From the IMG/VR virus record IMGVR_UViG_3300021093_000004: 64,000 bases of DNA; one strand, 5' to 3'. The translations under genes and the position numbers were made by a program. Each line of letters starts with the position of its first letter. Position 1 is the first letter of the stretch. The notes under the pieces were generated by a model. It did no database searches. It worked only from the letters and a program-made list of their open reading frames with translations, and was not told where the DNA came from. Source of the stretch: a virus. Lineage: Duplodnaviria > Caudoviricetes. Positions 5,810-63,633 of this stretch are shown here, piece by piece.

Positions 5810-6295
5810 ATGAAACTTCGCACTATACTCGAATTCGTAGAACCTGAGATTAATGCGGCAGATCCCGAAGATTGGGAGGCTGCTGATCAGGCAGACCGTA
5901 TTGCTAGCAATTCGGGAATTAGAATATCTCGGAATAAAGAGTTAACACTAGTCGCACAAGTAGGTGGCGAAGTTGTCGGGGCGGTTTGGTCAGCGTTCGA
6001 ACGTGACGATGAAGCAAGTCAAGAATACGGAGAGGATGTATACCGCTTCGATTTTGACGTTGCAGTTGATCCAAAATCGCGAGCTATGGGCATGGCGTCT
6101 GCTCGGATTGGGCCAAAACTTATTGATGCTGCTTTAGACCACTACCGCTCACTGAAATCTGAATTTGGAAATGCCTACATCCGTGTGTATGTTGTGAATC
6201 CGAAATTAGCCGGTTATCTGGAACGACGTTACGGATTTGAACCGGAAGGACGTGGATGGTCTCAAGATAGTTTACATATGATTTATCACGGATAA
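5810..6295 (+). CDS. GNAT-like acetyltransferase with MKLRTILE N-terminus
   Basis: EVVGAV, DVAVDPKSR..IGPKLIDAAL, YLERRYGF resemble GNAT motifs A and B. Confidence 0.6.
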   Translation: MKLRTILEFVEPEINAADPEDWEAADQADRIASNSGIRISRNKELTLVAQVGGEVVGAVWSAFERDDEASQEYGEDVYRFDFDVAVDPKSRAMGMASARIGPKLIDAALDHYRSLKSEFGNAYIRVYVVNPKLAGYLERRYGFEPEGRGWSQDSLHMIYHG

Positions 6296-7321
6296 TCCGG
6301 GCGTTTGTGTATTTCGAGCGATCTTGTCTTTGTCGATTCTCAGATTTGTGATAATATTTGTCATTCGTTCAATCATAAATCCCAATAATACTGCCGCGTC
6401 TGGAAAAACGATCCTTTCGGCACTTGAATGGCTGATATCTAGCTCGTTCCACAGTTCAATATTCTGCATTACTGTGGTTTGATATCCTCTAATTACTCTG
6501 GCTAGACCACAAATATTCTCACATTGTATAGGATTTCGCTTGTGCGGCATGCTGGATGATCCGACTTGGTTTTCTTCAAATCCTTCTGCCATTTCTTCTA
6601 TTCCGCTTTGTGATAATAGCCGAATATCGGTTGCAATTTTCGCGATTGCACTTGCCAATAATGCCCATTCATTCATGCGTTCTGCATAGATGCCACGGTG
6701 GATGATCTGCCCATCATACAAGCCTTCGACGAGATTCAGTTTAGACAGCGTGTTTATAACGACAGCACGATTGACATACTTTAGTGATCCTACACTATCC
6801 GCCAATCGTCCGTAATAAGCACATTTGAATGTTCCGTACCTGAGAATTGTGTGCAAATATGTATCGAACTTTTGGCTGAGTGGCATTAGTTCTGCGGCCT
6901 GCCCATGAGTTCGTCCCACGATCATAATTCCATCACACTCAGAGATTTTCTGCTTGAGTATAGATACGAGTGCTCGCAAGAGATCAGTGATAACTTCATT
7001 GCTGGCACGGATCATCATAGAAAAAGCGGTGTCAACAATGTCCGATGAAGTCAAACCATAATGCACGAATCGGCTGAATAATGGATCAGTTTCGTGTACT
7101 TTCGATTCGAGCCACTCAACGAATGCGACTACATCGTGTTTCGTTTGCATTTCTCTCGATTGGATGTCATCGATCCACGATGACTCGAAATGATCAGGGG
7201 CGAGAATGGAGACGGCTTTTAGTTCTGACAGAAATGATAATTCAATTTGCGTCCATACAAGGTATTTATTGCCAATGGACCAAATTTCTGAGATTTTTGG
7301 GTGATCGTATCGTGGTAACAT
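6272..7321 (-). CDS. purB: Adenylosuccinate lyase, C-terminally shortened
   Basis: MLPRY, HDVVAF, HYGLTSSD, GRTHGQAAE, GSSSMPHKRNP signature. Confidence 0.9.
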   Translation of the reverse strand: MLPRYDHPKISEIWSIGNKYLVWTQIELSFLSELKAVSILAPDHFESSWIDDIQSREMQTKHDVVAFVEWLESKVHETDPLFSRFVHYGLTSSDIVDTAFSMMIRASNEVITDLLRALVSILKQKISECDGIMIVGRTHGQAAELMPLSQKFDTYLHTILRYGTFKCAYYGRLADSVGSLKYVNRAVVINTLSKLNLVEGLYDGQIIHRGIYAERMNEWALLASAIAKIATDIRLLSQSGIEEMAEGFEENQVGSSSMPHKRNPIQCENICGLARVIRGYQTTVMQNIELWNELDISHSSAERIVFPDAAVLLGFMIERMTNIITNLRIDKDKIARNTQTPGLSVINHM

Positions 7322-7373
7322 TTTCTTCTCCGATAACTTTTTCTAGCTTTAAAACTTTGGAGAGGTCAGTTGA

Positions 7374-7565
7374 ATGTATGTAATTTTTGATAATCTAACC
7401 GGGAAATATTATACCGGTAATGGTTGGAATGCTGCATTGAAGCTAGCTCTTCAGCAAACTAAACTTCGTGCTGAAGAATTAGCTGAATCGATGAATATGC
7501 ATGTTGCTCGTGGATGGATCAAAGGCGAATTCGTGTTGATTGACTACGATTCAATAGATAATTGA
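7374..7565 (+). CDS. Small hypothetical protein
   Basis: ORF overlapping the start of the next gene by 4 nt. Confidence 0.45.
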   Translation: MYVIFDNLTGKYYTGNGWNAALKLALQQTKLRAEELAESMNMHVARGWIKGEFVLIDYDSIDN

Positions 7566-8278
7566 TGCTCCAACACAAACGAAACGAACGATGGGAACCG
7601 TCTGCCGACCAACTCAGGCAATCGATCAAGGAGCGGACATTACAGATACTTGGCGGTAGCTTAGAATTTCCTACTGATCATCGTCTTCGATATCTCCTTG
7701 ATAATATTGAATGCAATCAATTAACTGCTGTTGAATTCGGATCATGGCATGGTTGGCATACCGCCACGCTATCCAGAAAGTTTCGGCATGTGATTGCCGT
7801 CGATGCCCGCCCCACCAATGTCGCATTTGCCCTATTGAGGCTAAAATTGTTGGGCATTAATAATGTTGATGTAGTTTTATCCGATGTTCAATCATTTGAA
7901 TTTAACTGTGACGTTCTAGTTCATATCGGGGTTTTATATCATTTGTCATTCCCGATCAAGCATTTATACCATGTGTTGCCAAAATGTCATACTATCTGCC
8001 TCGATACCCATATTGGCGACGAGGACCGTCCTCATTTGACGCCATCATATGAAGTGTACAATGATGAGATATATTATGGCAAAAATTTCCCTGATGGTGA
8101 CTGGGATGATGCGTTGAGTGGAGTTTGTGGTACTAGTTTTTGGCCTAATTTGGCTGAGATTCATCGTGTTCTTAATAATTTGCGATTCAAGATTTTACAC
8201 GAACATCGGCATATGGTTGATCCTGGCCCGCGTGTGACTATTGTCGCTTCGAAACGATGCGGCAGGATTCTCATGTGA
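7562..8278 (+). CDS. Class I SAM-dependent methyltransferase
   Basis: AVEFGSWHG, VIAVDAR, GVLYHL motifs. Confidence 0.75.
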   Translation: MMLQHKRNERWEPSADQLRQSIKERTLQILGGSLEFPTDHRLRYLLDNIECNQLTAVEFGSWHGWHTATLSRKFRHVIAVDARPTNVAFALLRLKLLGINNVDVVLSDVQSFEFNCDVLVHIGVLYHLSFPIKHLYHVLPKCHTICLDTHIGDEDRPHLTPSYEVYNDEIYYGKNFPDGDWDDALSGVCGTSFWPNLAEIHRVLNNLRFKILHEHRHMVDPGPRVTIVASKRCGRILM

Positions 8279-8305
8279 GTATGTGCCCTAAAAATGGTGA
8301 CAAGG

Positions 8306-8644
8306 TCAAGTGAAATGTGTCACATAAAATCTCCAAATTTGCGCATAGCAAACGCCCCAGCTTGCGCGATGCGCTTCAACCGCTACGCCGTTAAGCTCTT
8401 GATCGAGTGCGTGCGCGTACTCGTGGAGTAACGTGTCAATCGCAGACAATGCCGACAAGTGTGTATCTACTTCAATAACAAAACGAATTATAGATCCATC
8501 GTTGTCGAGATATGTGATACAACTCCCACAGATTTTTTGCTTATTCAGTTTTTTACACACAATTCGCAAAGGACGTGACAACGGAAACTCACGCCGCAAC
8601 TTTCGAGCAAGTGTTTTAAAATTGTTTTGCATATTGCGTGCCAT
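8306..8644 (-). CDS. Small HExxH (SprT-like) metallopeptidase-like protein
   Basis: TLLHEYAHAL followed by H..SWG. Confidence 0.6.
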   Translation of the reverse strand: MARNMQNNFKTLARKLRREFPLSRPLRIVCKKLNKQKICGSCITYLDNDGSIIRFVIEVDTHLSALSAIDTLLHEYAHALDQELNGVAVEAHRASWGVCYAQIWRFYVTHFT

Positions 8645-8668
8645 AGTACCCTCCTTGGTATGGCTTGT

Positions 8669-9994
8669 TTAATTTCCGAGAGGTCTCCCGGTGTAACTGT
8701 TGATGTTCACCTGCATTCTTGCAATAGGTCCCTCACTGTGATCCCAAACAAAAGCCATTGCGCCTCGCTGTTGCCAGTTAAACGCTTTGATTCTGTGCCA
8801 GGCATTAGGTGGCGTCAGTGAGGGTAGGTATTCTACGCTGACACCTTGCTCCTCCATAATTACCGGACTACCTGAACCTTTACGGTGCTGGTCACCCAAG
8901 TGCCATTCACGAAAACAAGTCTTAGCCCATTGGTTTTTAGCTTCGTGAGCCATTAGTCCGGCTAAGCGAATTGGTTTAATGTGATGTCCATGGTCGAAAC
9001 CTACCAAGTTTACCCCGTAATGCCAAAACTTGTACGGCGACGAATCCACAATCACGCTGACATTGCTGTTCTGTCGGTAGTATGCCCGCAAAACATGTCC
9101 TAAACTAAAAGAAGAAACCTGATCATGGTTTCCGCTAATTTGAATTACGCGAACAGGAGCTACCTCAGAAAGACGTTCCACGATCGCGATTCCAAGCTCA
9201 ATAGCTTTCTCGTACACCGTAAAGTACGACACGCCTTCTGGCTGTAGTGTTCCTTTCGTTGTCGTGTGCATTAGATTGTCGTGGTGCATAAAGTCATTGC
9301 CAAATGGAAAGACAATTTCTTCAAAATCACCATAACTAGCTGCACGTTCAAGCAACCGATCGACAGTCCACATACAAAGCTTAGAACACTGCGATAAATC
9401 CCAAGAGTGATCGCTTTCACCCTTAAAACAAAGCATGCCAAGGTGCGGGTCCATCAAAGAAACTTCTAAAGCACGCCGCGTTTTGGATGAACGTCCTTTA
9501 GGATACTTAATGCGTGCGCGGAACGGTCCGTGCTTAGACAACTTGTCGAGCAAACGCTCTACCGCGATCTTTTCGTCTCGCTTGCGACGCAAAAGAACTT
9601 TAATCTGCCGCAAGCCAGTTTTGTAGATACCGCCGTCTGATTTTCCTCCGGCTTGTTCCCAGACGTTAGTAATGACTTGATCAATCTCAAAAAGTGCGAG
9701 ATCAATTCCGGATTTTAAAATCAATTCTTCGTAGGTGTGAATCTGTTCACCAAAATATTCAATCTCAGTGACAGCACCTTTTTCTTTGATGTTTACTTTC
9801 TCTTTTGCCGAAACAGTGTTGCCCGACTGCAAGTCTTTTCGCAATCGATCAAGAAGTCCCGACTCTTTTAGTTTATAAAACACACAACCACGCGAGACGT
9901 TCATCTGTCTTGCGGTTTCTGCTAGATTGCCTTTATTAGCTAAAGCTAGCGAATACAACTCCTGATCTGTCAACTTATTGGCACGTTCGGCCAT
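8669..9994 (-). CDS. N-terminal HTH plus calcineurin-like metallophosphoesterase
   Basis: GNLAETARQMNVSRG HTH; DPHLG, GNDFMH, SGNHD, HGH, GDQH motifs. Confidence 0.75.
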   Translation of the reverse strand: MAERANKLTDQELYSLALANKGNLAETARQMNVSRGCVFYKLKESGLLDRLRKDLQSGNTVSAKEKVNIKEKGAVTEIEYFGEQIHTYEELILKSGIDLALFEIDQVITNVWEQAGGKSDGGIYKTGLRQIKVLLRRKRDEKIAVERLLDKLSKHGPFRARIKYPKGRSSKTRRALEVSLMDPHLGMLCFKGESDHSWDLSQCSKLCMWTVDRLLERAASYGDFEEIVFPFGNDFMHHDNLMHTTTKGTLQPEGVSYFTVYEKAIELGIAIVERLSEVAPVRVIQISGNHDQVSSFSLGHVLRAYYRQNSNVSVIVDSSPYKFWHYGVNLVGFDHGHHIKPIRLAGLMAHEAKNQWAKTCFREWHLGDQHRKGSGSPVIMEEQGVSVEYLPSLTPPNAWHRIKAFNWQQRGAMAFVWDHSEGPIARMQVNINSYTGRPLGN

Positions 9995-10071
9995 TGTTTA
10001 TCCTCCATGACGCGACATTGTCGCAACTTTCTTTAGTTTTGGGTTGGATTAACAATCTGGCACAAAATTAA

Positions 10072-10144
<73 letters not shown>

Positions 10145-10215
10145 CTTGAGGAATCATTCGTTCAATTTAATCGAAAACTAGCAACGATTGGTAAGCAAGA
10201 TTCAAGCATGATCCA

Positions 10216-10461
10216 ATGTGTTGGACCAGCGACGGTTATAAGGACACTATTCGATATTGGCAGACCGGCAACAAAGACCTGGATATTCTGCTGAAGGGCG
10301 TTGGAGAAGTCAGTGAACAAGTATGTCTAGACTTCGGCTGCGGAATAGGAAGGCTGACTATTCATGCCAAAGAAGCATTCAGGAAAGTACATGGAATTGA
10401 TATATCAAAAACGGTTATTGATATAACCAAGAATAACGAAAGTGATTCATTAGACACCTGA
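10216..10461 (+). pseudogene. Truncated class I methyltransferase
   Basis: CLDFGCGIGR and GIDIS motifs, then an early stop. Confidence 0.6.
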
Positions 10462-10503
10462 GTATATAGAAATTGTTCGACTCTTGTTAGATTTACAGAA
10501 ATC

Positions 10504-10731
10504 ATGATCCACGAGTTCAACAAGCCAATACCTGTAGTCGTTGAAGGTAACAAAACAGGTTATGCAATTTATGTCCAATCTTCAGGCATGTTTGAGAATG
10601 ATGTGTGGTGCGTCGTCCATTGTGATGGCGGAATAGTTAGACACTACACTACTGACCAGATCAGGGTTTACCAAAATCTGACATTTAATATCAAGAAATC
10701 AGGTGGTCAGACGCAGGAATGTCAAACATAG
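10504..10731 (+). CDS. Phage hypothetical protein
   Basis: Compact ORF with GYAIYV, ENDVWCVV, VRHY segments. Confidence 0.55.
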   Translation: MIHEFNKPIPVVVEGNKTGYAIYVQSSGMFENDVWCVVHCDGGIVRHYTTDQIRVYQNLTFNIKKSGGQTQECQT

Positions 10732-10844
10732 CATTGGAGGTTACTATGACATTCAAAGAGCGATTCGTTGTTGGTCTCGAACAACCCTGAATCGCTTTGG
10801 CTACCAGAGATGCACAAATGGGCCGATGTTCATGAAGGATAATT

Positions 10845-11567
10845 ATGTCAGATCCCATATGGGTCGGTTCTCTCGACGATATTCGACATGGCGAAGCTGC
10901 ATTAGCGGCTATCAAAGAACAAAGTGACGTCGATCGCTGGGTCGATGGTCAAGGTATCATTCAAGTTGATAGAAATAGATGGGAAGCCGCCCAAAAGTTC
11001 GAACGACAAGGCTGGATGAACGCATGGGCCTCTGATTCTGATGATCGCAGCCGCGAGCACCACCAATTGTTTGATGGCTATAATGCAGTTCCACCAAATC
11101 TTGGTAACATATTAGAAGTTGGCTGTGGTCCGTTCACTCAAACGCGGACGATCTTATCTGCCCGCTCTGCAACTTCGATTACTCTACAAGATCCGTTGAT
11201 TAACGACTATCTTCATCATCGGCATTGTAGTTATACCAATCGCCGATTGCATGATATTCCGGTGACGTTAGTCCCAATGATGCTTGAGTATTTCACACCA
11301 CCGGAAGAATTCGATACTGTGGTGTGTATCAATGTTTTGGAGCACACCATGGACGTGAAAGTGTGTCTTCAACATATGCTCGCGGCACTGAAGCCGGGCG
11401 GAATATTGATTTTTGGGGAGCGAATTTACGACGACTTCGATCCTACGAGATTATATTGTATCGGGCACCCCATTCGGATTTGCAAAGCGATTGTTGACGA
11501 ATTCAAAAAGAATTTCAGGATGCTTTTTGAGCGTAGTGATAATGGCTATTTCATAGGTCAGAGATGA
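10845..11567 (+). CDS. Class I SAM-dependent methyltransferase
   Basis: ILEVGCGP, FDTVVCINVLEH, LKPGG. Confidence 0.8.
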   Translation: MSDPIWVGSLDDIRHGEAALAAIKEQSDVDRWVDGQGIIQVDRNRWEAAQKFERQGWMNAWASDSDDRSREHHQLFDGYNAVPPNLGNILEVGCGPFTQTRTILSARSATSITLQDPLINDYLHHRHCSYTNRRLHDIPVTLVPMMLEYFTPPEEFDTVVCINVLEHTMDVKVCLQHMLAALKPGGILIFGERIYDDFDPTRLYCIGHPIRICKAIVDEFKKNFRMLFERSDNGYFIGQR

Positions 11568-11634
11568 GTCTCTTTGACATATGAACCAGTGGGCACTTGT
11601 TTTAACATACTCGCTCCACGTGTTAGGAGCGTAT

Positions 11635-12243
11635 ATGAACCTTTTCATACTGAATGTTGATCCACGTCAAGCGGCTATCGAGAACTGCGATAAGCATGTT
11701 TGTAAGATTATCCTCGAAGCCGCCGATATGTTGTGTTTAGCTCATTGGCACTTCGATTTTCCACGCATCGCACAAGCCCCGCAGATTCTTAGAGAATCTC
11801 GAATGGTTGTCAATGACAAGGGCACCCATCGGTGCGTTTGGCGGTATCGCCCCCAGAGTCAGAATAACAATCATGTTAGTGTCTGGGTCCGCACGAGTCT
11901 TGAAAATTATCGTTGGACAGGGCAGCATGGTCTGGCACTTTGTGACGAATATGAACGTCGCTATGCACACACATTGCGTAAGAAGGGTTTACTGCATCAT
12001 CAGACCCGACCAATTATGGAGTGGTTCGCGAAGAATGAACCACCGATCCAGTCTGTTGACAGAACGCCTTTTCGCCAAGCGGTAGCAGAAGATTGCTACA
12101 ATTCCGACATTGTTACTGCATATCGTGAATATTATGTGAGATACAAGGTACGATTTGCTAAATGGCGATTGGGTAATGTACCAGAATGGTTTACGGATGG
12201 TGTAAGGGCAAATCTTACTTCTTTTCCATCTTCCGCAACTTAG
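11635..12243 (+). CDS. Pyrimidine-dimer DNA glycosylase (DenV-like) family protein
   Basis: MNLFILNVDP, CDKHVCKIILE, W..TSLENY.W, AYREYY, FAKW. Confidence 0.7.
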   Translation: MNLFILNVDPRQAAIENCDKHVCKIILEAADMLCLAHWHFDFPRIAQAPQILRESRMVVNDKGTHRCVWRYRPQSQNNNHVSVWVRTSLENYRWTGQHGLALCDEYERRYAHTLRKKGLLHHQTRPIMEWFAKNEPPIQSVDRTPFRQAVAEDCYNSDIVTAYREYYVRYKVRFAKWRLGNVPEWFTDGVRANLTSFPSSAT

Positions 12244-12374
12244 TATAAATCTTTCGGATTTTCTTTGAGATGATCTTTCGCGATTTCTTTGGCGACTCTG
12301 CTGTCTGATGTCTGTTCTAATTTGGTTTCGATTCTCATTCGAAGTTGTTCGGGATCGAATTTACGTAGTCGCAT
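12215..12374 (-). pseudogene. Frameshifted small protein, DUF5661-like
   Basis: QLRMRIETKLEQTSDSRVAKEIAKDHLKENP; a 1-nt shift restores YTKLRKMEKK*. Confidence 0.55.
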
Positions 12375-12378
12375 AAGC

Positions 12379-12834
12379 TTATAACGAAACGTCTTCATCA
12401 GTCAAATAATAGGTAGCTCCGAAACCCTCACGAAATCCGTGCTTTTTATAGATTTGGGCAGACCCTTCCGTCGAAGATAGGTACAATCCAGCCCCATGGT
12501 CTGCGGCTACGGACTTTAAACCTCTTATGACTTCTGATCCAATTCCAGGATGGGCGGTTGCTAAACTTCCTATTCTTAAATAATCGCCCTTGGGCATCCC
12601 TTCAGAGTCTCCATGATCTGGTGCTTTCCAGAGACTAGCCACTCCTACAAGCTTGCCGCTGTGATCTCTAAATGCATGAACATCGAACCATTTCGGAGAA
12701 TCACCTGTGGCAGCCGATAGGGCTCGTTGCAATCTTTCTCCGTCTGGAAACGAATTTAGAATTTCATATACGATTGTTCTTCCATCTAACACTTGACTTC
12801 GAAGCCTATTTTCATCTATTATTCGTAGTCGCAT
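12379..12834 (-). CDS. GNAT-like acetyltransferase with MRLRIIDE N-terminus
   Basis: LVGVAS, IGSLATAHPGIGSEVI, IYKKHGF; start set at ATG 12834. Confidence 0.6.
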   Translation of the reverse strand: MRLRIIDENRLRSQVLDGRTIVYEILNSFPDGERLQRALSAATGDSPKWFDVHAFRDHSGKLVGVASLWKAPDHGDSEGMPKGDYLRIGSLATAHPGIGSEVIRGLKSVAADHGAGLYLSSTEGSAQIYKKHGFREGFGATYYLTDEDVSL

Positions 12835-12870
12835 ACTGGCCCGTTTCCTATCCTGGGCGGTCACACTTAT

Positions 12871-12944
12871 GCCGCTATCAGCTAGAAACCAAGGCTACCC
12901 GGTTCTAAGCCGGGTAACGGTGGGTTCGAATCACCATAGCGGTA
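12871..12944 (+). tRNA. Amber (CUA) suppressor-like tRNA
   Basis: Acceptor GCCGCTA/TAGCGGT; anticodon arm CCCGG-TTCTAAG-CCGGG; TTCGAAT present; D-loop lacks GG and T-stem is irregular. Confidence 0.72.
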
Positions 12945-12947
12945 TAC

Positions 12948-13522: not shown

Positions 13523-13555
13523 TAATTCCTTCTCCTGTATAATAGATTTGCCCAT

Positions 13556-13636
13556 GTACATGTGGTGGAATGGTAGACACGCTGGTCTTAGGAGCCAGTG
13601 CCGTAAGGTGTGAGGGTCCGAGTCCCTCCGTCCACA
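13556..13636 (+). tRNA. Degenerate tRNA-Leu(TAG)
   Basis: Leu-type D-arm and long variable arm; two acceptor-stem mismatches; T-loop TCCGAGT. Confidence 0.6.
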
Positions 13637-13727
13637 CTATTTAAGTACCGTCAGCCGCAAGGCTACCATCGTGGAAATATCACGAAGGCGATGATCGTAG
13701 CCACAGTCCTTACTAAAGGCTCATAAT

Positions 13728-13810
13728 GGTCGTGTGGTGGAATGATAGACACGGGGGTCTCAAAAGCCGCTGATCGTAAGATCGTGAGGGTTTAACTCCC
13801 TCCTTGACTA
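13728..13810 (+). tRNA. Degenerate tRNA-Leu(CAA)
   Basis: Loop CTCAAAA; long variable arm; mismatches in acceptor and anticodon stems; T-loop TTTAACT. Confidence 0.62.
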
Positions 13811-13815
13811 TTATA

Positions 13816-13889
13816 GGGCGTTTAGCTCAGTTGGTAGAGCATCTGCTCGACACGCAGAAGGTGCACTGGTTCTACTCCAGTAATGCCCA
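13816..13889 (+). tRNA. tRNA-Val(GAC)
   Basis: Good cloverleaf; anticodon loop TCGACAC with C at position 33. Confidence 0.8.
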
Positions 13890-13900
13890 CTGTATTTTAC

Positions 13901-13982
13901 GGAGGGTATCCGAATGATCAGGAAGCCGTTTCGAAAACAGCCGGGTCGAAAGGCTTTTAGGGTTCGAATCCCTTGTCCTCCG
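13901..13982 (+). tRNA. tRNA-Ser(CGA)
   Basis: Loop TTCGAAA, long variable arm, TTCGAAT T-loop, G discriminator. Confidence 0.72.
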
Positions 13983-13990
13983 CTTGATAG

Positions 13991-14413
13991 GTGAATATGT
14001 ACGCAATATTATACAATGATGCTCAATTAAAAATCGCTGATATTCACGCTGAATGTGGGCATGAACGATGGGTGCCCTTAATGGTATATCGTCCAATTGA
14101 TGATCCAGGAGGTCTACCCAGACTAGTCCTATTTGATAATAAGGACTCAGCCTATCGGTTCGCGAGGCGCAACGTGACTTCTCAAATGGAGAAAAAAGGA
14201 TGGCTGCGTGGATCGGTATTTCTGACACGAGAAGACATTGAAGCAATCAAAGCACGTGGATGGATATTAGACATATTCCAATGGCCTCGGAAAATCATTG
14301 GAAATAAAGATTTATTGGTGAGCTTTGAAGTTCACGAATTCGCTGGCCGAGTAGATGTGAGACATATCCATGGTAAAACACGACCAGAGCTTCCCAAATC
14401 TGACGATCTTTGA
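13991..14413 (+). CDS. Hypothetical protein
   Basis: 140-codon ORF within the tRNA cluster. Confidence 0.55.
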   Translation: MNMYAILYNDAQLKIADIHAECGHERWVPLMVYRPIDDPGGLPRLVLFDNKDSAYRFARRNVTSQMEKKGWLRGSVFLTREDIEAIKARGWILDIFQWPRKIIGNKDLLVSFEVHEFAGRVDVRHIHGKTRPELPKSDDL

Positions 14414-14621
14414 TGATTTCTTGCCGCCAGAAGAACTCGCGTATTGGAAGGAACGAGTCGAAACCGGCGAAGAATCGGTCTGTTTATACGGGGACGACAT
14501 CAAAAAACACGGAATTATATAAGAGATGTCGAGAATTAGTCGGTCAATCCGACAGATGGTTCATTGCGATCTTCGATAGTATTGAAATGGCGATTGCCTC
14601 TTGAATATATTTCGTGATTAT

Positions 14622-14706
14622 GACCGGATGGTGGAATGGTAGACACTAGGGACTTAAAATCCCTTGCTCTGTAACGGGCGTGAGGGTTCGACTCCCTCTC
14701 CGGTCA
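14622..14706 (+). tRNA. tRNA-Leu(TAA)
   Basis: Perfect acceptor GACCGGA/TCCGGTC; AGGGA-CTTAAAA-TCCCT; TTCGACT T-loop. Confidence 0.9.
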
Positions 14707-14714
14707 CTGAATCT

Positions 14715-17113: not shown

Positions 17114-17674
17114 TCATAGAGTCCGATTTTTGCCAGCAGCCCTGTGATTATAGCCTTCTCTGTGTTGGTTCGTGGCATGTCGGGGAATCGGTGGCTGTAC
17201 ATGTTGGTTCAATAGGGTAAAGACTTGAAGTAGGAATGCCTGTACGAAATCTCCAATACCAGGGCTAGTCTTGTCAGAATTTCCTGCTATGTTCAGGATT
17301 TTGATATCGTTCTCGATGATCCAGTTCGACACATCTTCAGGCGTCGTGGTTTCACGTCTAACGTCAATCGACAGGCTCGGTTTGCCATATTGCCGAATCA
17401 TTTTCGCGGTGAGTTGTTCTCCCGGTGACACGAAATTCGACGCGAACCGTATAGTCCCATCTGATTCTTTCACATTTAGAGCGGTGCGTGGTGGGTATTC
17501 AGGGCTTTCGTGTTCTTTGATGCCGTATTGGTAAGCGAACTCTGGATGAGACCCGTCGTGTGCCTTGAAGCCTTTCGGCATCCATCCACCGGTCTTTAAC
17601 CCGGCTGTAATAGCCGCGTCCAATCCCGCTCGGTCGGCTCCGGTCTGCCCTCCAGAAATCACTTTGGTTAACAT
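17114..17674 (-). CDS. SLOG-superfamily protein (putative molybdenum-carrier/YpsA-like)
   Basis: VISGGQTGADRAGLDAA, RTALNVKESDGT, ILNIAGN. Confidence 0.8.
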   Translation of the reverse strand: MLTKVISGGQTGADRAGLDAAITAGLKTGGWMPKGFKAHDGSHPEFAYQYGIKEHESPEYPPRTALNVKESDGTIRFASNFVSPGEQLTAKMIRQYGKPSLSIDVRRETTTPEDVSNWIIENDIKILNIAGNSDKTSPGIGDFVQAFLLQVFTLLNQHVQPPIPRHATNQHREGYNHRAAGKNRTL

Positions 17675-38255: not shown

Positions 38256-38387
38256 TTACGAAGATCCTAAATCTATTAATAATTTCCCAACCCGGTCGAT
38301 ATGTTCTTTAGTTCGCTTCTCGAAGAAAGCGACCATTTCTGGGGTCGGATCAGAGATTTTATCTTCTGAAATCATTCGTAATCTCAT
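38256..38387 (-). pseudogene. Truncated gene beginning MRLRMISE
   Basis: Read by hand: MRLRMISEDKISDPTPEMVAFFEKRTKEHIDRVGKLLIDLGSS*; RTKEHIDRV resembles the start of an HD-domain family. Confidence 0.5.
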
Positions 38388-40007: not shown

Positions 40008-41315
40008 ATGGCGAAGATTAGTACGATCAAAGAAGCGATCATGATTTGTCGCGATGCCTATGTCACCCCATTCATCTGGGGCCATCGCGGGTTGGGTAAA
40101 TCAAGTTTGGTGCAACAAGTTGCCGCCGAACAGTCTTGGGGGTTCATCGACCTTCGATGCTCTCAATTGGAAGCTTCCGATGTTCGTGGGCTTCCTGATC
40201 GTGTCAATGGTCGGACGCATTATCTTCCACCAGCCGATATGCCGGTCGGCGATCTTACTCTGGAACAGATCGAAGCGGAATTGGGCAAAATGCCAGATCC
40301 GGGCGATCTCGAAGCCGAACGTCAATACTATCTCAAGCTTCAAAGCTTGCAACCGCGATTCCAACGCGGAATCCTTTTCATCGACGAAGTGAACCGTGCC
40401 CAAGACGATGTGCTTCAAGCCATCTTCCAGTTGGTGCTCGACCGTCGCGTCGGGATGTATGTCCTTCCTCCCGGATGGTGCGTTGTTGCGGCGGGCAACT
40501 ATATGGAAGGATACATGGTTACGGGGTTCAATGACCCTGCATTCTTGAACCGATTCAGCCACCTGATTTTGAGTGGTGGCGAGACGACTCTCGAAGAGTG
40601 GGTCAATTACATGTCCGTCGCCCATGGTCCAACAGCGACCGATGTAATCGAATTCGCTTCACAGAACACGAAGCATTTGGACGGTGATGTTGCGGGAGAA
40701 CTTGGGTTTTCGATTCAGCCGTCTCGCCGATCGTGGGAAATGGTGGTTCGTGTTGATAAGGCTTGCGAAGCCGGTGGTTATAACGAAACCGCCAGAATAG
40801 AAGTGTTGGCCGGGTTGGTCGGTCGAGAATTGGCCCAAGCATTCACCCGCTATTCATGCCCTGTCAAGCCGCGTGAACTGATTCAACGTGGTGTGAAGGT
40901 CTTCGAAGACAAGCTTCGCAAATTGAGCCGGAACGAACTGACCGGTCTCATGTGGGGTATGGTTTCATTCTGCAAGACGCAGACCGAGAAAGACGAAATT
41001 GCTACTGTCTGCCTCGATTTCGCGGAATTCATGGTGGGTGTTACCAGCGACAAGGATGTTGTAGTTGCATTCTGCCGTGCGTTGGTCAGCGGTGGACACC
41101 CTAACGATAAACAGGAAAAGCCACGTGCTGCGGTAATCTCGAATCCGCGATTGGCAGAAATGATGAGCAAATTCGGCAAGAAAGCCGGAAACGACCGCAA
41201 ATCGTTTGTGGATCGGTTGGTGGAACGCCCGGCATTGCAACAAGCTTTGGCCCGCGTTTCGTGGGGCTTTGATGATTCCGAAGAACCAGAACCCCCAAAG
41301 AAAGGCAAGAAGTGA
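40008..41315 (+). CDS. MoxR-like AAA+ ATPase
   Basis: WGHRGLGKS Walker A; LFIDEVNRA Walker B; AAGN; RF. Confidence 0.88.
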   Translation: MAKISTIKEAIMICRDAYVTPFIWGHRGLGKSSLVQQVAAEQSWGFIDLRCSQLEASDVRGLPDRVNGRTHYLPPADMPVGDLTLEQIEAELGKMPDPGDLEAERQYYLKLQSLQPRFQRGILFIDEVNRAQDDVLQAIFQLVLDRRVGMYVLPPGWCVVAAGNYMEGYMVTGFNDPAFLNRFSHLILSGGETTLEEWVNYMSVAHGPTATDVIEFASQNTKHLDGDVAGELGFSIQPSRRSWEMVVRVDKACEAGGYNETARIEVLAGLVGRELAQAFTRYSCPVKPRELIQRGVKVFEDKLRKLSRNELTGLMWGMVSFCKTQTEKDEIATVCLDFAEFMVGVTSDKDVVVAFCRALVSGGHPNDKQEKPRAAVISNPRLAEMMSKFGKKAGNDRKSFVDRLVERPALQQALARVSWGFDDSEEPEPPKKGKK

Positions 41316-41324
41316 TCCCTGTGA

Positions 41325-41496
41325 ATTGATGCCAGTTAGATGTAGCGGAAACCTTACCGCTGTTGAGTTACGGGGAATGCACCCTAAGTCGGAGCGAGTG
41401 AAGCTGGTCGTGCTTGAACTAGCTGCGATGCCGAAAGGCAAAACCTCGGCAAGCTATCACATCGATGGGAGTTGAGACCCATTAACTGGTGTCAAT
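41325..41496 (+). ncRNA. Candidate structured RNA, family not recognised
   Basis: 14-bp closing stem with two G-U pairs enclosing several hairpins, including a GAAA tetraloop. Confidence 0.55.
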
Positions 41497-41534
41497 CTTT
41501 TGCCACAATGTAATATACCAACAGGGAGTTAAAT

Positions 41535-42992
41535 ATGAGACAGATAGCTGCGACAGTTCCGGGCGGGCGTGCTCCGGTTGATGAAAAACAAGCGGATCGA
41601 TTGATGAAGGCTCGCTGCCGCCTGATGATGCGAGAGCCGTGGTACGGTCACGTTGCTATGAGCATGGTATGGATTCCCAGCCAAATGTCATGGATGGCAG
41701 AGAATCGCCGCACGATGGGTGTGCGGATTGTTAACGGTGGTGAGATTCAATGCTTGTATTATCCGCCGTTTATTGAGACTCTGAACATCAAAGAGTTATA
41801 TGCGGTCATTCAGCATGAAATCGAGCATATTGTCCGAGTTCACTGTGTTCGCATTGGTGATCGTGAGCCTGAAGCGTGGAATATCGCCGCCGATATGACG
41901 GTGAATGGGCCTCGATCTTCACCACGAATTGGTTATTCAGACCCGACCACGAACGAACTGGTGATTCCGTTTAAGAATCAGATCGTCTGGATTCCGGAAG
42001 ATTGGCCGAAGGATGGAACTTCGGAGCAGTTCTACGATCAACTCAAGGAACGCCAGCAGACCAAGGTCTGTAACTCGTGTGGTCGCCCGACTCAAGGCCA
42101 TGGGCAAGGGAAAGGCCCGAAGGGTCAGGGTCAAGGCCAAAAGCCGTCTCAAGGTGGCGGAACGCCAGGACAGGGCAACGGAACGCCAGAACAGGGCAAC
42201 GAAACGCCTTCCCAAGGCAACGGAACGCCTCAGAATGGCGGTCAGCCGGATGAAAACACTTACCCCGGCTGCGGACAAGATCATGATGGCGTCTATCATT
42301 ATGGTGGAGTTTCGGGGCGTGGATTGGATGACCACAGCGTCTGGAATCAGTCTGATGTGTCTCAAGATGAAGCCCGTCAGATTGTTAAGGATTTGGTAGA
42401 TCAAGCGACTCAGAAATGTCAAGGTCATTTTCCGGGCCATCTGCAAGGTGCTATCCAAGAACTTGGAAAGCCAGTTGTTCGTTGGCGTGAATTGTTGCGA
42501 CATTATCTTGGCAAGCATGTCGGCAATCAACGGTCCACATATTCTCGTCGGAACCGCCGCCGAGATTGGTTTGGTGTGCCTGGTATCAGCCACCACGCGG
42601 CTGCAAATGTCAACGTGATCGTCGATACGTCCGGTTCCATTGGTGTTCGTGAATTGGAGCAATTTTTCGCTGAAATTGATTCGATCAGCTCACGTGCAAA
42701 GACCATGGTGCTTCAATGGGATGCGGCATTTCAGGGATACGAGAAGTATCGCCGTGGCGATTGGAGAAGATTCAAGATCACTGGGCGTGGCGGCACTGAC
42801 ATGGCTAAGCCTGTGCAGTGGGTAATTGATAATCATCTGGTGGCCGACGTTCAGGTCATGTTGACGGACGGCTATTGCAACTACACCGATGCTTCGAACG
42901 TAAAATTCCCGATTATTACGGTGATTACCACCCCAGAAGGTACTACTAATAGCCCTCCATACGGGCATGTCGTTAGGATGAAGGTGGCATGA
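41535..42992 (+). CDS. HExxH metallopeptidase-like plus vWA domain protein (DUF2201-like)
   Basis: QHEIEH..RVH, WNIAAD, VIVDTSGS MIDAS, GRGGTD, LTDG; 21-bp GTPGQGN repeats. Confidence 0.85.
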   Translation: MRQIAATVPGGRAPVDEKQADRLMKARCRLMMREPWYGHVAMSMVWIPSQMSWMAENRRTMGVRIVNGGEIQCLYYPPFIETLNIKELYAVIQHEIEHIVRVHCVRIGDREPEAWNIAADMTVNGPRSSPRIGYSDPTTNELVIPFKNQIVWIPEDWPKDGTSEQFYDQLKERQQTKVCNSCGRPTQGHGQGKGPKGQGQGQKPSQGGGTPGQGNGTPEQGNETPSQGNGTPQNGGQPDENTYPGCGQDHDGVYHYGGVSGRGLDDHSVWNQSDVSQDEARQIVKDLVDQATQKCQGHFPGHLQGAIQELGKPVVRWRELLRHYLGKHVGNQRSTYSRRNRRRDWFGVPGISHHAAANVNVIVDTSGSIGVRELEQFFAEIDSISSRAKTMVLQWDAAFQGYEKYRRGDWRRFKITGRGGTDMAKPVQWVIDNHLVADVQVMLTDGYCNYTDASNVKFPIITVITTPEGTTNSPPYGHVVRMKVA

Positions 42993-52864: not shown

Positions 52865-53440
52865 ATGCGTCTTAACAGCATATGGTTAGAATATAAAGGA
52901 TACCATCAGGCACCGGATGCTGAAAATGGTGCTCCTATGCATGACCTTAAGACAATATACCCAGACGATATATATTCGTTTGATGGTGCTAGAATATACG
53001 GTTCTGGAGAACCATATGATCAACAGGCCATATTAATATTAAGACTAGCACGAGGCAAGCCTAATTATCCTGTCAAGGTGTTTAGAGCTGTTCCTAAAGT
53101 TATTACTAAACAGCAACATATACAAGATCTGATAGATCAAAAAAAATACATATTAAAACGTGGTAAGATACCTCCTAGAATCAATACCCATATGGATTCA
53201 AGTGAATATTACGAGTATATATCAGATCAGCTAGAACAAATAGAAAAATCAAACGCACTGCCAGAGAGAGTGCAGATCAATCCGGGTGATTGGGTGACGA
53301 TTAGTAGAGAATACGCTGTGTTACACGGAAGATCTTCTCTAAAGGGCGCGTACAGAATACTATCTAAAACAGTCAGGGCTAAAGACCTGTTCACAGAGGG
53401 AAACAGTTTGCACGAATGGGGCTATTTCCCTGCTGCCTAA
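52865..53440 (+). CDS. Putative ADP-ribosyltransferase-fold protein with MRLNSIWLE N-terminus
   Basis: VFRAV (R), GDWVTIS (S/T), GNSLHEWGY (E). Confidence 0.5.
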   Translation: MRLNSIWLEYKGYHQAPDAENGAPMHDLKTIYPDDIYSFDGARIYGSGEPYDQQAILILRLARGKPNYPVKVFRAVPKVITKQQHIQDLIDQKKYILKRGKIPPRINTHMDSSEYYEYISDQLEQIEKSNALPERVQINPGDWVTISREYAVLHGRSSLKGAYRILSKTVRAKDLFTEGNSLHEWGYFPAA

Positions 53441-53522: not shown

Positions 53523-54101
53523 ATGCGTTTATCTATAATCAATGAAACCGCCGTACATTTCCACGACGGAATTGCTGATACATATTCGCGATATGTTGCT
53601 GTCCACGGGGATATTAATGACGGTATACCAGAAATAGTGTATGCAGCACTCGATTCTTTGGGTCACGGCAATCTTAGTTATATACAAACTAAAATTAGAC
53701 CACATTTTTTGGGCTGGATTGGTTATTATGTTCGCGATGGCGTTTTAATCATTACTGAGATACAATCAGATGTTTTGGAAAAATTATCAAATTCTGAGAT
53801 TCATAATATTGGAGATTTAAATACACAATCCATAGTCAAAAAATATCGATCCAGAATTGACAATCGATATAGCCGTTGGATTGACAATGCTTTGTTGTAC
53901 ATCGAGTCACAATTAATACCAAGTCTTAATGATCAACGGCAACAATGTCCCCACGGTCCTGAATCAAAGATCGATTCAATATCAGTAGAACTACCGCGTA
54001 ATTTGGAACTAGGGACTAGGTTAATGCGAATGATTTCAGCACTTGGGCGTGCTGGTTATCGCAAAATAGACCAACATACCTTTAATAAGAAGTTGATTTA
54101 A
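53523..54101 (+). CDS. Hypothetical protein with MRLSIINE N-terminus
   Basis: ORF with ATG at 53523. Confidence 0.6.
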   Translation: MRLSIINETAVHFHDGIADTYSRYVAVHGDINDGIPEIVYAALDSLGHGNLSYIQTKIRPHFLGWIGYYVRDGVLIITEIQSDVLEKLSNSEIHNIGDLNTQSIVKKYRSRIDNRYSRWIDNALLYIESQLIPSLNDQRQQCPHGPESKIDSISVELPRNLELGTRLMRMISALGRAGYRKIDQHTFNKKLI

Positions 54102-54519: not shown

Positions 54520-54538
54520 TATATGAGCTTGTTCTGTA

Positions 54539-56627: not shown

Positions 56628-56643
56628 AACGTGGACACCACAA

Positions 56644-57168: not shown

Positions 57169-57187
57169 GGCAATCTAGGAGGCTCAG

Positions 57188-57831: not shown

Positions 57832-58375
57832 TTTCTGGTGCTTCCGTTTCCATCTCTTTTGACGGTTCTCGCTCAAGCGATTCAGAAGCCGACCCGCCGC
57901 CTTCTAGTGCCGCCTCTGACTCTGGAGAGGCCACGGCTGGGTCATCTTTGGGTGGGTCCGGCTCGTCGAATTCGATTTGATATATCGGAAGTCGCACTCC
58001 ACAACATCTTTTGTTTATGTCAGGTTCTTCCTTAGCCAACGGCGAAGTGTCTCGAAACCATTGTGGGTGGCATATGCACAAGCCATTCGAAAATTCTATG
58101 TCCAGCCCGAATGCCATACCGTTATGATCTGTAACGCCATCTTGGATTACTTGGCCGTCTTTAAGCAGTTTCCATTTGTATCCGCGAGCAATCTGACCTT
58201 TGTATTTGCACACTAATACGGTATCCATCCCCATAAAGCTATTGTCTGGGGATGGCTGCTTCATTCCAAGGAATGGAGAACGTCGCATTTCGCGACGCAT
58301 ATAGATATACAATTCACTTGCGGCTTGTTCAGTGATGAAATAATCGTGGGCTGTAATTGTGAATGACGCAATCAT
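57821..58375 (-). CDS. Hypothetical protein
   Basis: Downstream of a large structural gene on the same strand. Confidence 0.5.
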   Translation of the reverse strand: MIASFTITAHDYFITEQAASELYIYMRREMRRSPFLGMKQPSPDNSFMGMDTVLVCKYKGQIARGYKWKLLKDGQVIQDGVTDHNGMAFGLDIEFSNGLCICHPQWFRDTSPLAKEEPDINKRCCGVRLPIYQIEFDEPDPPKDDPAVASPESEAALEGGGSASESLEREPSKEMETEAPETTE

Positions 58376-58388
58376 AAACCTATCTATG

Positions 58389-60908: not shown

Positions 60909-60987
60909 GTGTAAAATCCTTTGTTTGCATTAATTACATTATTAAATTTGCATTCATGGTGCAACGCAAAGCTAGGAAAACAACGGC

Positions 60988-61671
60988 GTGCAACAAATGG
61001 ATACACAACTTAACGAAATAGTGAAATTATATCATAGCGGATTATCATATGCCGCTATTGGACGCAGGCTACGTCGATCCAGGTCAACGATAAAGCGTCA
61101 TCTTAACAAACAAGGAATAACCGAACCCAACCCAACGCGGAATTATATTTTAAAGCTTGGGGATATACTTGATATTACCACTGAAGTCGGGCAATATTGG
61201 TTCGGATATATGTGGCTAGGTGGTCATATCGCTCGCGATCGATTTCGTTTGTCTTGCAAAGTCCGATTACAAGATATCGGTCATCTTTTTTCTTTTTGTG
61301 CTGATGTTGGTACTACTCAGATCCCTCGTAAACATGTCGGTTCGGCCAGATCTTCGGCCATTTTACAATTAAATTCCAAAATATTATGTGAATTCTACCA
61401 ACAGCAGCATACTCATACACGACATTCGATTCGTGGAGCATGGGACGCTCGCGGACGATTGTTTATTCGACATGGGGCATTGAGAATGGGGTTTACTAAT
61501 CCTCCGGAATTTGTGGACGAATGGTGCACTGCCAATGGATTCATGTTGCATAATGATGTCTTGTCACCAATTCAATCGATGGACTTAGCACGATTGTTGT
61601 ACACCAACCAAAGTCGGGCATTACAACGTCATACCAATATAGTGATGACTAATTACCAGATAAAGAAATAG
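60988..61671 (+). CDS. HTH plus LAGLIDADG-like protein, possibly degenerate
   Basis: GLSYAAIGRRLRRSRSTIKRHL HTH; YWFGYMWLGGHI; IRGAWDARG. Confidence 0.55.
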   Translation: MQQMDTQLNEIVKLYHSGLSYAAIGRRLRRSRSTIKRHLNKQGITEPNPTRNYILKLGDILDITTEVGQYWFGYMWLGGHIARDRFRLSCKVRLQDIGHLFSFCADVGTTQIPRKHVGSARSSAILQLNSKILCEFYQQQHTHTRHSIRGAWDARGRLFIRHGALRMGFTNPPEFVDEWCTANGFMLHNDVLSPIQSMDLARLLYTNQSRALQRHTNIVMTNYQIKK

Positions 61672-63218
61672 TTCGGATCTCGGTTCATGGGGTGTGTGAC
61701 CACTTTGATCATCGACTTTGGTTTATACATTTTCTGATATTCTAGCTTCTTTTCTCGTGGCACATAGACCATAATATTCTTTGCTCTGTCTGCGAATGAC
61801 AGAGCATATTCGATATCTGTTTCTGACAAGTCATTGTCATTGATCACCAAATCGACAACTTCAGAACCATCGTAATATTGATATTTAAGATCCATCAAAT
61901 CTGCGAATCCACGCTCGATGGCCTGTCGGAAACGCGGGTTGTCATGAATGCGGTAGTCACATCCAGCAAGACCGCATGCAACCGCTCTTGCCCCGGTCCC
62001 TAGTTGTAAATCGAGTACCGTCCCTGTAAAGCCCAAACGACGGAGAATTATAGAATAGAATGCCGGGTTTGGGAATCTAAATCGCGATCGCTCTTTCGTG
62101 ATCAATCTAATCAGATTGTAGACATTGAATTTCGATTTGGTTTTAAGCAATTGCTTTGCGAGTTTCCACATTCGCCTTGGGCGTCTGAAATATTCCCAGA
62201 TATAGCCATGTTCAAAGTAATGAAGCATAATATACTTGGTCACTGTCCGACTGAATATGGATGTGAATGCTCCATTCTTAATATAATTGCTTTCTTTCAC
62301 ATTCTTGAGAACATCTAGCTCACGCAATAGCACTTCTTGTGGGACGGATGGCCAAATCCATCCTCTAGTAGCCAATTGCTTTACGAATTCATGTAGTACC
62401 ACATCTCTTTCGAATACCGAACATTGATCTAAATTCGCGATAGTGATGTGGGCAGGATATGTTGTACCGGTTGTCAGATCGTTCTCATATTCGTTCGTAA
62501 TCTTTGGTATAGAATTTAATACCCATTCATCGCCGGGTATGGTTTTGTAAATGTATCTGCCATACAAGCCATCGCGGTACTTGACATATAGATGGGTTGG
62601 GTATGTCTTGACACGACGAACTATCGGATGCTCACGGAGTTTGACGATTAAATGCTTCAGTTCAATTGGTACCTGATACGGTTCTTGATGAACCCTAATT
62701 TGTATTTTGAATTTAATTAGCCAATCGACAAATGTGGGGTGGGTTACTCCAGCTATCTTCGCACATTTTCGAATTGAATATCCGAGTTCGACGTAGTGTC
62801 TGTGGCACCACGCTTTCGTGTAACACGGATTTTTGTTGATCCGCCCTGGTAGTGGAACTTCGAGCTTTCGCAGAATCTCGTAAAATCGCTTTTTGGTTAA
62901 TCCTGTGGCTCTGATAATCGAATTTGAGCCATATTTGGGCAAATGCTCAATCAACCATTCGCGTGTTCGCCAATTATCAGGCAATTCTGCGATATCGACT
63001 GTTCTGGTGGTTGCTCTGTTCTTGGTCTTAGGGGCTTTTCCTTGGATGCCGACTGATCGACGCAGTGCCCGGACATCGCGTGAACATTTACCGATAATTA
63101 TTGACAAATCTTGGATATTTAGATATGCATACTCTTCGAACCATTTTCGAAGAGCTTTTGGATTTGATTGATCGATCTTTTGAAATCCCGCCCGTAGGTC
63201 GGAATAATCATCATTCAT
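61653..63218 (-). CDS. Multi-HTH protein with C-terminal methyltransferase-like domain
   Basis: YSIRKCAKIAGV HTH; TVLDLQLGTGARAVA; DLVINDN where a catalytic PPY motif would be expected. Confidence 0.5.
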   Translation of the reverse strand: MNDDYSDLRAGFQKIDQSNPKALRKWFEEYAYLNIQDLSIIIGKCSRDVRALRRSVGIQGKAPKTKNRATTRTVDIAELPDNWRTREWLIEHLPKYGSNSIIRATGLTKKRFYEILRKLEVPLPGRINKNPCYTKAWCHRHYVELGYSIRKCAKIAGVTHPTFVDWLIKFKIQIRVHQEPYQVPIELKHLIVKLREHPIVRRVKTYPTHLYVKYRDGLYGRYIYKTIPGDEWVLNSIPKITNEYENDLTTGTTYPAHITIANLDQCSVFERDVVLHEFVKQLATRGWIWPSVPQEVLLRELDVLKNVKESNYIKNGAFTSIFSRTVTKYIMLHYFEHGYIWEYFRRPRRMWKLAKQLLKTKSKFNVYNLIRLITKERSRFRFPNPAFYSIILRRLGFTGTVLDLQLGTGARAVACGLAGCDYRIHDNPRFRQAIERGFADLMDLKYQYYDGSEVVDLVINDNDLSETDIEYALSFADRAKNIMVYVPREKKLEYQKMYKPKSMIKVVTHPMNRDPNYFFIW

Positions 63219-63633
63219 AGTTATCGTCGATCCAGTCTGGACGATCAGTCTCGGCAATCACGACATCCTCTGGTGTGAATTGGACATCGGGAATCCTCGA
63301 CCAGTTATATCCACCACCACTTTCATAGACGTGGTATGGAATATCTACTACATATGCCTCTTGATCATTGTAGGCTACCAAATATGCGTGGTCATCACCG
63401 TCATGACCACCTTCTGTATAGTCGATTCCATTCGATGATAAAACATCGCCGATTGCATTCGCAATCGCATCACAGATCCCACCGCTACCGAATTCATCGT
63501 CACCATCGTCGCCCGGTGTCCATTCATCGTATACCGCTTGAGCCGCTTTTGCAAATTGAGGACGCAATTGGGCTAGGACAGGTAATAATCGAGTTGATAG
63601 TTGTCCGCTTTCGACGATTTGCCGAAGTTTCAT
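63211..63633 (-). CDS. Hypothetical acidic protein with MKLRQIVE N-terminus
   Basis: GGICDAIA, HAYLV, YESGGGY. Confidence 0.6.
   Translation of the reverse strand: MKLRQIVESGQLSTRLLPVLAQLRPQFAKAAQAVYDEWTPGDDGDDEFGSGGICDAIANAIGDVLSSNGIDYTEGGHDGDDHAYLVAYNDQEAYVVDIPYHVYESGGGYNWSRIPDVQFTPEDVVIAETDRPDWIDDNYE

Follow-up and report, generated by a model that had tools for sequence, protein, structure and literature searches.

Seven genes for otherwise unrelated proteins in a 64,000-nucleotide stretch of phage DNA (IMG/VR virus record IMGVR_UViG_3300021093_000004, Caudoviricetes; hereafter, the window) start with nearly the same eight residues, M-[K/R]-L-x-x-I-x-E, and this shared start, here called the tag, is probably a capsid-targeting propeptide of the phage T4 type (probability of roughly 0.65). 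In T4, the first 10 residues of internal protein III (IPIII) suffice for packaging, and residues 8 and 10 govern processing (PMC9026906, PMC3012670). The internal proteins of T-even phages are diverse, and the capsid-targeting sequence (CTS) is the sole part that they share (PMC3012670, PMC9026906). A preliminary description of the window had relied on these T4 facts, which proved sound (MKTYQEFIAE was found twice in the T4 record, and the CTS literature cited above agrees), and had proposed that the phage uses a short tag of its own to load enzymes into the head. The comparative tests described here back a CTS-type propeptide that is cut after I-x-E; the further steps of that proposal, namely, packaging, cleavage, and injection, would follow by analogy.

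A shared N-terminal tag conserved as a peptide

The strict pattern M[KR]L..I.E was matched six times in the six-frame translation of the window, compared with 0.05 matches expected from composition; among the 88 predicted N-termini, the expectation was 0.003 to 0.022. The six strict tags are MKLRTILE (position 5810, plus strand), MRLRIIDE (12834, minus), MKLKLITE (15495, plus), MRLRMISE (38387, minus), MRLSIINE (53523, plus), and MKLRQIVE (63633, minus), and I-x-E occupies residues 6 to 8 in all of them. The seventh gene, at 52865 (plus), starts with MRLNSIWLE, which is the same tag with one additional residue and ends in W-L-E. The reversed pattern gave no match in the six-frame translation of the window, and position-permuted patterns recovered just two II-containing tags that had already been counted. 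Each strict tag begins at the first Met of its own open reading frame (ORF), 1 to 20 codons past the upstream stop, and allowing GTG or TTG starts added no copies in the window.

At the DNA level, the codons of the conserved residues vary (K, AAA or AAG; R, CGA, AGA, or CGT; L, CTT, CTA, CTG, or TTA; I, ATA, ATT, or ATC), and the DNA 5' of the tagged genes showed no mutual similarity. Varied codons together with unrelated upstream DNA point to conservation of the peptide rather than of a DNA cassette. When residues 1 to 8 were removed, no pair of tagged proteins within one genome matched at an E value of <1e-3. The preliminary description had named at least seven unrelated ORFs with near-identical starts; every position was right, and the proteins are unrelated without the tag. 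A further start that it had counted as a weaker match, MRLRKFDPE at 12374, fared less well: position 6 is F, the spacing is that of nine residues, and D-P-E stands in place of [IL]-x-E. Its ORF also has an alternative start at 12398, 8 codons 5' of this one.

The tag in related phages

A search with the capsid protein returned 161 related IMG/VR stretches, of which the best 80 (capsid identity of 71 to 92%) were kept; several of these come from contigs of 340 to 408 kb. The 1.05 Mb of related flanks contained 16 more strict tags on different proteins, all at or near ORF starts (54 codons past the preceding stop in 1 case and no more than 13 in the other 15), and several lie directly 3' of the capsid gene. 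The motif scan against background, which had been named as a check on the proposal, was extended to two complete relatives, G1 (354 kb) and G2 (408 kb), which carry 6 and 10 strict tags versus 0.35 and 0.44 expected. The reversed pattern had no match in either genome.

Other subclades carry M[KR]LxxLxE instead, with position 7 often Y, F, or H in relatives G003 to G007 and S or T in G008. The ratio of I to L at position 6 was 22:1 in the window, G1, and G2 combined, 1:7 in G3, 1:6 in G5, and 0:7 in G008. Orthologous cargo has the tag type of its own clade: orthologues of the 5810 protein start with MKLTTITE in G1 and MKLSILHE in G5, and the G5 orthologue of the protein tagged at 63633 (gene 63211) starts with MKLRVLYE. 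The uniformity of I- or L-type tags is clade-wide. Near uniformity within each genome, with orthologues following their clade, points to one common recognition partner.

The head module and its predicted cleavage sites

By its genes, the source of the window is a distant T4-like huge phage, with a predicted portal, S77 prohead protease, scaffold, and gp23-type capsid protein. No close cultured relative was present in the phage collection, and the top capsid match was 40% identical, from an uncultured 595-kb phage. The same contig occurs in three JGI samples (3300020196, 3300020074, and 3300020603; the copies include loci L161 and L162), where a T4-type portal and a large terminase are encoded just upstream of the window start, and the order of the head genes is portal, 1018-aa protein, protease, scaffold, and Gp23. 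The protease encoded at 442 to 1224 is 30% identical to T4 gp21 (E value, 9e-15), and its FDHP and ISSRG motifs supply the His and Ser where the T4 gp21 crystal entry (5jbl) has Ala. The gp21-like protease recognized in the preliminary description is an S77 member with the catalytic residues in place.

Sites from the T4 record provided the reference for cleavage motifs (a slash marks the cut): gp23 L-T-E/A, gp24 L-R-E/S, gp22 MLKEQLIAE, gp21 L-I-E/T, and Alt MELITELFDE. The window capsid sequence I-F-E94/DQTTT aligned onto the gp23 and gp24 sites, a site predicted by homology, and [IL]-[FL]-E/[DE]xTTT is kept in 59 of 59 distinct relatives aligned. The N-terminal protease sequence NRG[LVI]IAE/TG (NRGLIAE/TG in the window, with IAE at residues 25 to 27) is conserved in relatives, its counterpart in T4 gp21 being LLIE/TW. 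Among window proteins of at least 100 aa, the scaffold has the highest density of [IL]xE (4.2 per 100 aa versus a median of 0.94), and the protease ranks second. With the motif shared by capsid protein, protease, and scaffold, the tag ends in a motif that this protease would be expected to cut.

Several other features of the head module were observed. The putative capsid propeptide (residues 1 to 94; 2050 to 2330) includes an N-terminal extension that is specific to the clade and has additional conserved [LIV]xE motifs (HL[VT]E, [IL]TE, and V[IL]HE) upstream of I-F-E, and these extra sites suggest redundant cleavage, as in phiKZ-like phages. The 1018-aa protein (L162 positions 6941 to 9997) occupies the interval between portal and protease, the place of gp67 and gp68 in T4; with its very acidic C-terminal part and its 24 [IL]xE sites, it is a candidate giant prohead core protein. 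In two relatives (L018, from 6497, which is G1 108295, 639 aa; and L011, from 6632), the protease gene is longer by about 380 residues, with similarity picking up again at window residue 114, immediately past the catalytic FDHP; the added segment resembles an intein or some other active-site insertion. The protease (442 to 456) and the capsid protein (2050 to 2064), which are unrelated, both start with MLP[ST]R and then a run of basic residues. In the window, G1, and G2, this start is confined to those two proteins, bar one short and probably spurious G2 ORF, and could represent a second N-terminal signal common to several proteins.

The tag as a modular addition to two cargo families

Sequence comparison indicates that the tag is a modular add-on in the families of the 63211 and 52865 proteins. 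In the 63211 family, close homologues are tagged and distant ones begin right at the LRPQxAxAAQxVYDxW core; a few members have G, D, Q, or N at the Glu8 position. The 52865 family comprises 66 homologues with a conserved core from Tyr10, and its leaders vary by lineage (for example, MRLNRIWIE, MLLRIIYE, MNFKTWLENED, and MIKLKNLLKEAED). Short leaders with hydrophobic-x-E were present in 44 of 54 cases, compared with 24.1 expected after shuffling, and the motif mostly ends 0 to 4 residues ahead of the core. Some homologues have leaders of the MIKLKNLLKE type, which suggests that the same cargo family has been retagged in each lineage.

The AlphaFold2 models of both proteins place the tag outside the confident fold, as the sole low-confidence N-terminal part. 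For 52865, the mean predicted local distance difference test score (pLDDT) was 90.6, with 49 for residues 1 to 10; for 63211, the mean was 81.7, with residues 1 to 15 in a coil at a pLDDT of <50.

The tagged proteins

The features discussed here are collected in Table 1. The proteins tagged at 5810 and 12834 had been described as GNAT-like, and both score above the Pfam Acetyltransf_1 cut-off (20.7 bits). A long perfect hairpin (GACATAGAAGAAGG..CCTTCTTCTATGTC, 5752 to 5795) lies just 5' of the 5810 gene. The 5810 and 15495 genes share ..ATAGTG[CT]ATG at the start, and these two genes and the one starting at 63633 are without a clear Shine-Dalgarno sequence.

TABLE 1 Features of the head module and the tagged set in the window
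Position	Strand	Feature	Basis
4..438	+	Acidic C-terminal end of 1018-aa protein, candidate prohead core protein	Full gene in L161/L162
442..1224	+	Predicted prohead maturation protease, T4 gp21 type, MEROPS S77	Pfam Peptidase_S77 4e-17
1287..2006	+	Predicted scaffolding (prohead core) protein, N-terminus MNKIKTLLE	Between protease and capsid gene like T4 gp22; conserved in 75 related loci
2050..3669	+	Predicted major capsid protein, T4 gp23 type	Pfam Gp23 on identical L161 gene; tblastn matches to T4-like capsid genes
2323..2331	+	Predicted capsid-protein maturation site, I-F-E(94)/D	Aligns with T4 gp23 L-T-E/A and gp24 L-R-E/S
5810..6295	+	Cargo 1, MKLRTILE + GNAT acetyltransferase, 161 aa	Pfam Acetyltransf_1 24.9 bits; phrog_1249 acetyltransferase
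12240..12374	-	MRLRKFDPE, small DUF5661-like ORF, probably outside the tagged set	DUF5661 3.9e-5, below cut-off; without [IL]-x-E
12379..12834	-	Cargo 2, MRLRIIDE + GNAT acetyltransferase, 151 aa	Pfam Acetyltransf_1 21.5 bits
15495..16925	+	Cargo 3, MKLKLITE + 476-aa protein with candidate C-terminal phosphoribosyl pyrophosphate (PRPP)-binding motif	Pfam Pribosyltran 26.3 bits
38256..38387	-	Tagged remnant, MRLRMISE + first ~35 residues of DUF5662-family protein	59% identity to G2 protein N-terminus
52865..53440	+	Cargo 5, MRLNSIWLE + phrog_2579-family domain, 191 aa	phrog_2579 7.7e-32
53523..54101	+	Cargo 6, MRLSIINE + 192-aa protein, family not found	No Pfam or PHROG family
63211..63633	-	Cargo 7, MKLRQIVE + 140-aa papain/transglutaminase-like protein	Invariant Cys54/His82, nearly invariant Asp97

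The 15495 protein had been called phosphoribosyltransferase (PRTase)-like. A candidate C-terminal PRTase motif is indicated by a Pribosyltran match of 44 residues (428 to 471) that includes VLIVDDNIQYGGT; the score lies exactly at the cut-off (26.3 bits), and no family was found for the first 400 residues. The G1 orthologue starts with MKLDMIYN..VSE. The ORF at 38387, recognized earlier as truncated, is a stub of a DUF5662-family protein, of which G2 has a counterpart (MRLIMILE.., DUF5662 3e-35); no shifted continuation of the stub was found in any frame.

The description of the 52865 protein as ADP-ribosyltransferase (ART)-like could not be confirmed. It had no Pfam match even at E values of up to 5, and its Atlas feature scores were merely 0.76 to 0.77 for ART-PolyVal, Arr, and PARP. 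Searches with the AlphaFold2 model (Foldseek, VIA-align) gave no significant PDB match, with cholera toxin A1, the SdeA mono-ADP-ribosyltransferase (mART), and an ADP-ribose complex at noise level. Family-invariant R74, H154, and E184 fit the ART signature R/H - S/Y - E and are not diagnostic. Among tagged proteins elsewhere in G2, ART-PolyVal was matched at 2e-5, which is below the cut-off. The proposed battery of modifying enzymes is supported for the two GNATs and, at the borderline score given above, for the PRTase motif, and it stands unconfirmed for ADP-ribosylation.

An Atlas structure search with the 53523 protein returned GNAT clusters with weak TM-scores (0.44 to 0.49 by query and 0.52 to 0.64 by target), so that a GNAT-like fold is possible. 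The fold matches of the 63211 protein were also weak (E value of 0.15 or worse), and all were thiol-protease/transglutaminase-like: the Pasteurella toxin C3 domain, SseI, arylamine N-acetyltransferases, and menin.

Other genes of the window

Six tRNA genes (10072 to 10145 and 13556 to 14707) correspond to Met-CAT, Leu-TAG, Leu-CAA, Val-GAC, Ser-CGA, and Leu-TAA. ARAGORN found no tRNA at 12871 to 12944, and a terminator-like hairpin lies at 12894 to 12918. A fumarate-lyase-family gene (Lyase_1, 3.5e-34; 6272 to 7321, minus strand) directly follows the tagged GNAT gene, and its product could catalyze a PurB-like step. A MoxR-like AAA ATPase gene is followed by one for a DUF2201 metallopeptidase/VWA protein (40008 to 42992, plus strand), and the pair is conserved in G1 and G2 as well, with the same MAKIS.IKEA start. 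The gene at 17114 to 17674 (minus strand) encodes a circularly permuted YpsA protein of the SLOG family (cpYpsA, 1.2e-40), a nucleotide-binding domain that is often found in conflict systems.

Discussion

By analogy with T4, we infer four steps for the tagged proteins: targeting, cleavage, retention in the head, and ejection. During prohead assembly, the tag would bind the tagged protein to the scaffolding core, around which the capsid shell would then close. The S77 protease (442 to 1224), once activated, would cut the tag after Glu8, and the same [I/L]-x-E motif would be cut in the capsid protein (I-F-E94), in the protease itself (I-A-E27), and many times in the scaffold. The released cargo would remain in the head beside the DNA and exit with it at the next infection. 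This cargo would consist of two GNATs, a PRTase-motif protein, a Cys-His-Asp papain-like enzyme, a phrog_2579 domain, and one protein for which no family was found.

Several results weigh against a T4-type propeptide. The cargo is not basic: its median isoelectric point of 6.3 equals the all-gene value, unlike that of T4 internal proteins. Nor are internal [IL]xE sites depleted in the cargo (21 versus 23.7 expected). The tagged genes cluster only loosely near the head genes, and no late promoter shared by tagged and head genes was found: TTTAATATT occurs just twice, which is the chance level; a sigma-70 scan gave background levels; and upstream k-mer enrichment recovered ribosome-binding-site words only. 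Prediction of a complex between protease residues 20 to 235 and the first 40 residues of the 63211 protein scored 0.00, which is no evidence either way. The scaffold N-terminus, MNKIKTLLE, was considered as a copy of the tag and rejected, as Glu9 is not conserved in relatives. Position 6 of the tag appeared to track the P3 residue of the capsid site in G003 to G007; this covariation is broken by G008 (L tags, capsid LILE) and also by L010 and L047, which have I-type tags and L at capsid P3.

Other explanations of the shared start must also be considered. The conservation of K/R2 and L3 exceeds what a P3-P1 protease site needs, and genomes are uniform at position 6 though the capsid site allows both I and L. 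These observations would suit an address or recognition peptide for a partner outside the prohead (a modifying enzyme, a chaperone, or another sorting machine), its likeness to the protease motif being coincidental. We regard this as unlikely, since no gene for a candidate partner was identified, the [IL]-x-E that closes the tag always lies at the same distance from Met1, and the same cargo family has hydrophobic-x-E leaders in other phage lineages. Moreover, the extra N-terminal residues of the T4 CTS are its targeting part (PMC9026906), so that the extra conservation is expected of a capsid-targeting propeptide too; it fits a two-part signal that combines targeting with cleavage. A protease-removable propeptide could instead hold potentially toxic enzymes inactive or mark them for late destruction, with no role in delivery. 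The cargo enzymes could harm the producing cell, and the tag directly adjoins the conserved core in the 52865 family. This reading is nevertheless quite improbable: S77 proteases act inside assembled proheads (PMC9026906), so that cleavage implies prior packaging, and eight flexible residues of low pLDDT are unlikely to inhibit several different folds.

The common start might also reflect translation initiation or another mRNA feature, such as a favorable context at codons 2 to 8 for genes with weak ribosome-binding sites; the three tagged genes without a clear Shine-Dalgarno sequence would be in keeping with this, and MK- starts are common in bacteria. Such an origin is very hard to reconcile with the different codons used for conserved residues, which indicate that selection acts on the peptide, with Ile6 and Glu8 at fixed positions without a known role in initiation, or with whole subclades that swap Ile6 for Leu6 together. 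Finally, duplication can spread a leader, as the DNA-identical leaders of T4 ipII and ipIII show, and one could envisage that the 5' ends descend from a common source, by way of a recombination cassette or a paralogous N-terminal domain, or that they agree by chance. Six matches against 0.05 expected, no DNA similarity in or 5' of the tags, and no similarity past residue 8 already refute this last explanation, as far as sequence data can.

Like the T4 CTS, the tag (a T4-type capsid-targeting propeptide on the reading that we prefer) is a short leader at the very start of proteins that are unrelated in all other respects, and it ends in [L/I]-x-E. In both phages, the S77 protease gene lies beside scaffold and gp23-type capsid genes, and one T4 cargo protein, Alt, is a host-modifying enzyme. 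The tag differs in having 8 residues instead of 10 and in a different and far more uniform consensus (M[KR]LxxIxE here versus MKTYQEFIAE and MELITELFDE). Seven tagged genes lie within 64 kb, compared with four cargo proteins in T4, and the cargo is mostly enzymes of 120 to 480 aa and ordinary charge rather than small basic proteins. The tags diverge in DNA, whereas the ipII and ipIII leaders are identical, and the system described here is known from sequence alone.

The phiKZ-like giant phages (phiKZ, 201phi2-1, and SPN3US) likewise package many ejection or inner-body proteins. A protease related to T4 gp21 cuts these after the Glu of a three-residue motif (PMC5694885, PMC9026906), and their propeptides have redundant sites (PMC5694885, PMC9026906), to which the several conserved [LIV]xE motifs of the present capsid propeptide are comparable. 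Their motif is [S/A]-x-E rather than [I/L]-x-E, and most of their propeptides have about 100 residues or more and no common short tag, in contrast to the uniform eight residues here.

For the polyvalent proteins that phages and conjugative elements encode, packaging into the head and injection along with the DNA have been predicted (Iyer, Burroughs, Anand, de Souza, and Aravind, 2017, PMC5512222), and the ART domain is a typical neighbor of their GNAT domain (PMC5512222). The same packaging and injection are predicted for the tagged proteins, and the effector repertoires overlap in GNAT, ART-PolyVal (the tagged G2 protein, below the cut-off), phrog_2579, and papain-like peptidases. Polyvalent proteins unite many domains in one giant polypeptide, often joined to MuF or portal domains, whereas the proteins described here are separate and small, each with its own short tag, as in the adjacent genes at 52865 and 53523.

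Reviews suggest that the CTS is a general loading route of T4-like phages. A literature search found no paper describing CTS-type tagging for huge metagenomic phages. The principle proposed here is not new and extends a published T4 mechanism to a new lineage; what is specific, on our reading, is the very uniform eight-residue consensus, its high local density, the mostly enzymatic cargo, and the clade-wide uniformity of I or L. If that reading is right, the tag might also serve, like the T4 CTS, to load foreign proteins into these capsids.

A bolder idea, which we put forward tentatively and consider doubtful on balance, is that the tag is an evolvable address code, uniform in each lineage of T4-like huge phages across the cargo set and coevolving with a receptor in the prohead core. 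The I-type tag here, the L-type tag of sister clades, in which position 7 is aromatic, and leaders of other kinds elsewhere would be examples of such a code. The full set of injected proteins of uncultured giant phages could then be read from sequence, and the solo enzymes (GNAT, papain-like, PRTase-motif, and phrog_2579) would be unlinked counterparts of polyvalent-protein domains, a largely unexplored set with a presumed role during the very first seconds of taking over the host or of counterdefense.

If the tag is indeed a T4-type capsid-targeting propeptide, a simple sequence rule would find the proteins that are carried in the capsid and delivered with the DNA in a widespread clade of uncultured phages of 340 to 410 kb. 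There would be 6 to 10 or more such proteins per genome, most of them without a known family. Acting before any phage gene is expressed, they would be prime candidates for host-takeover and antidefense functions.

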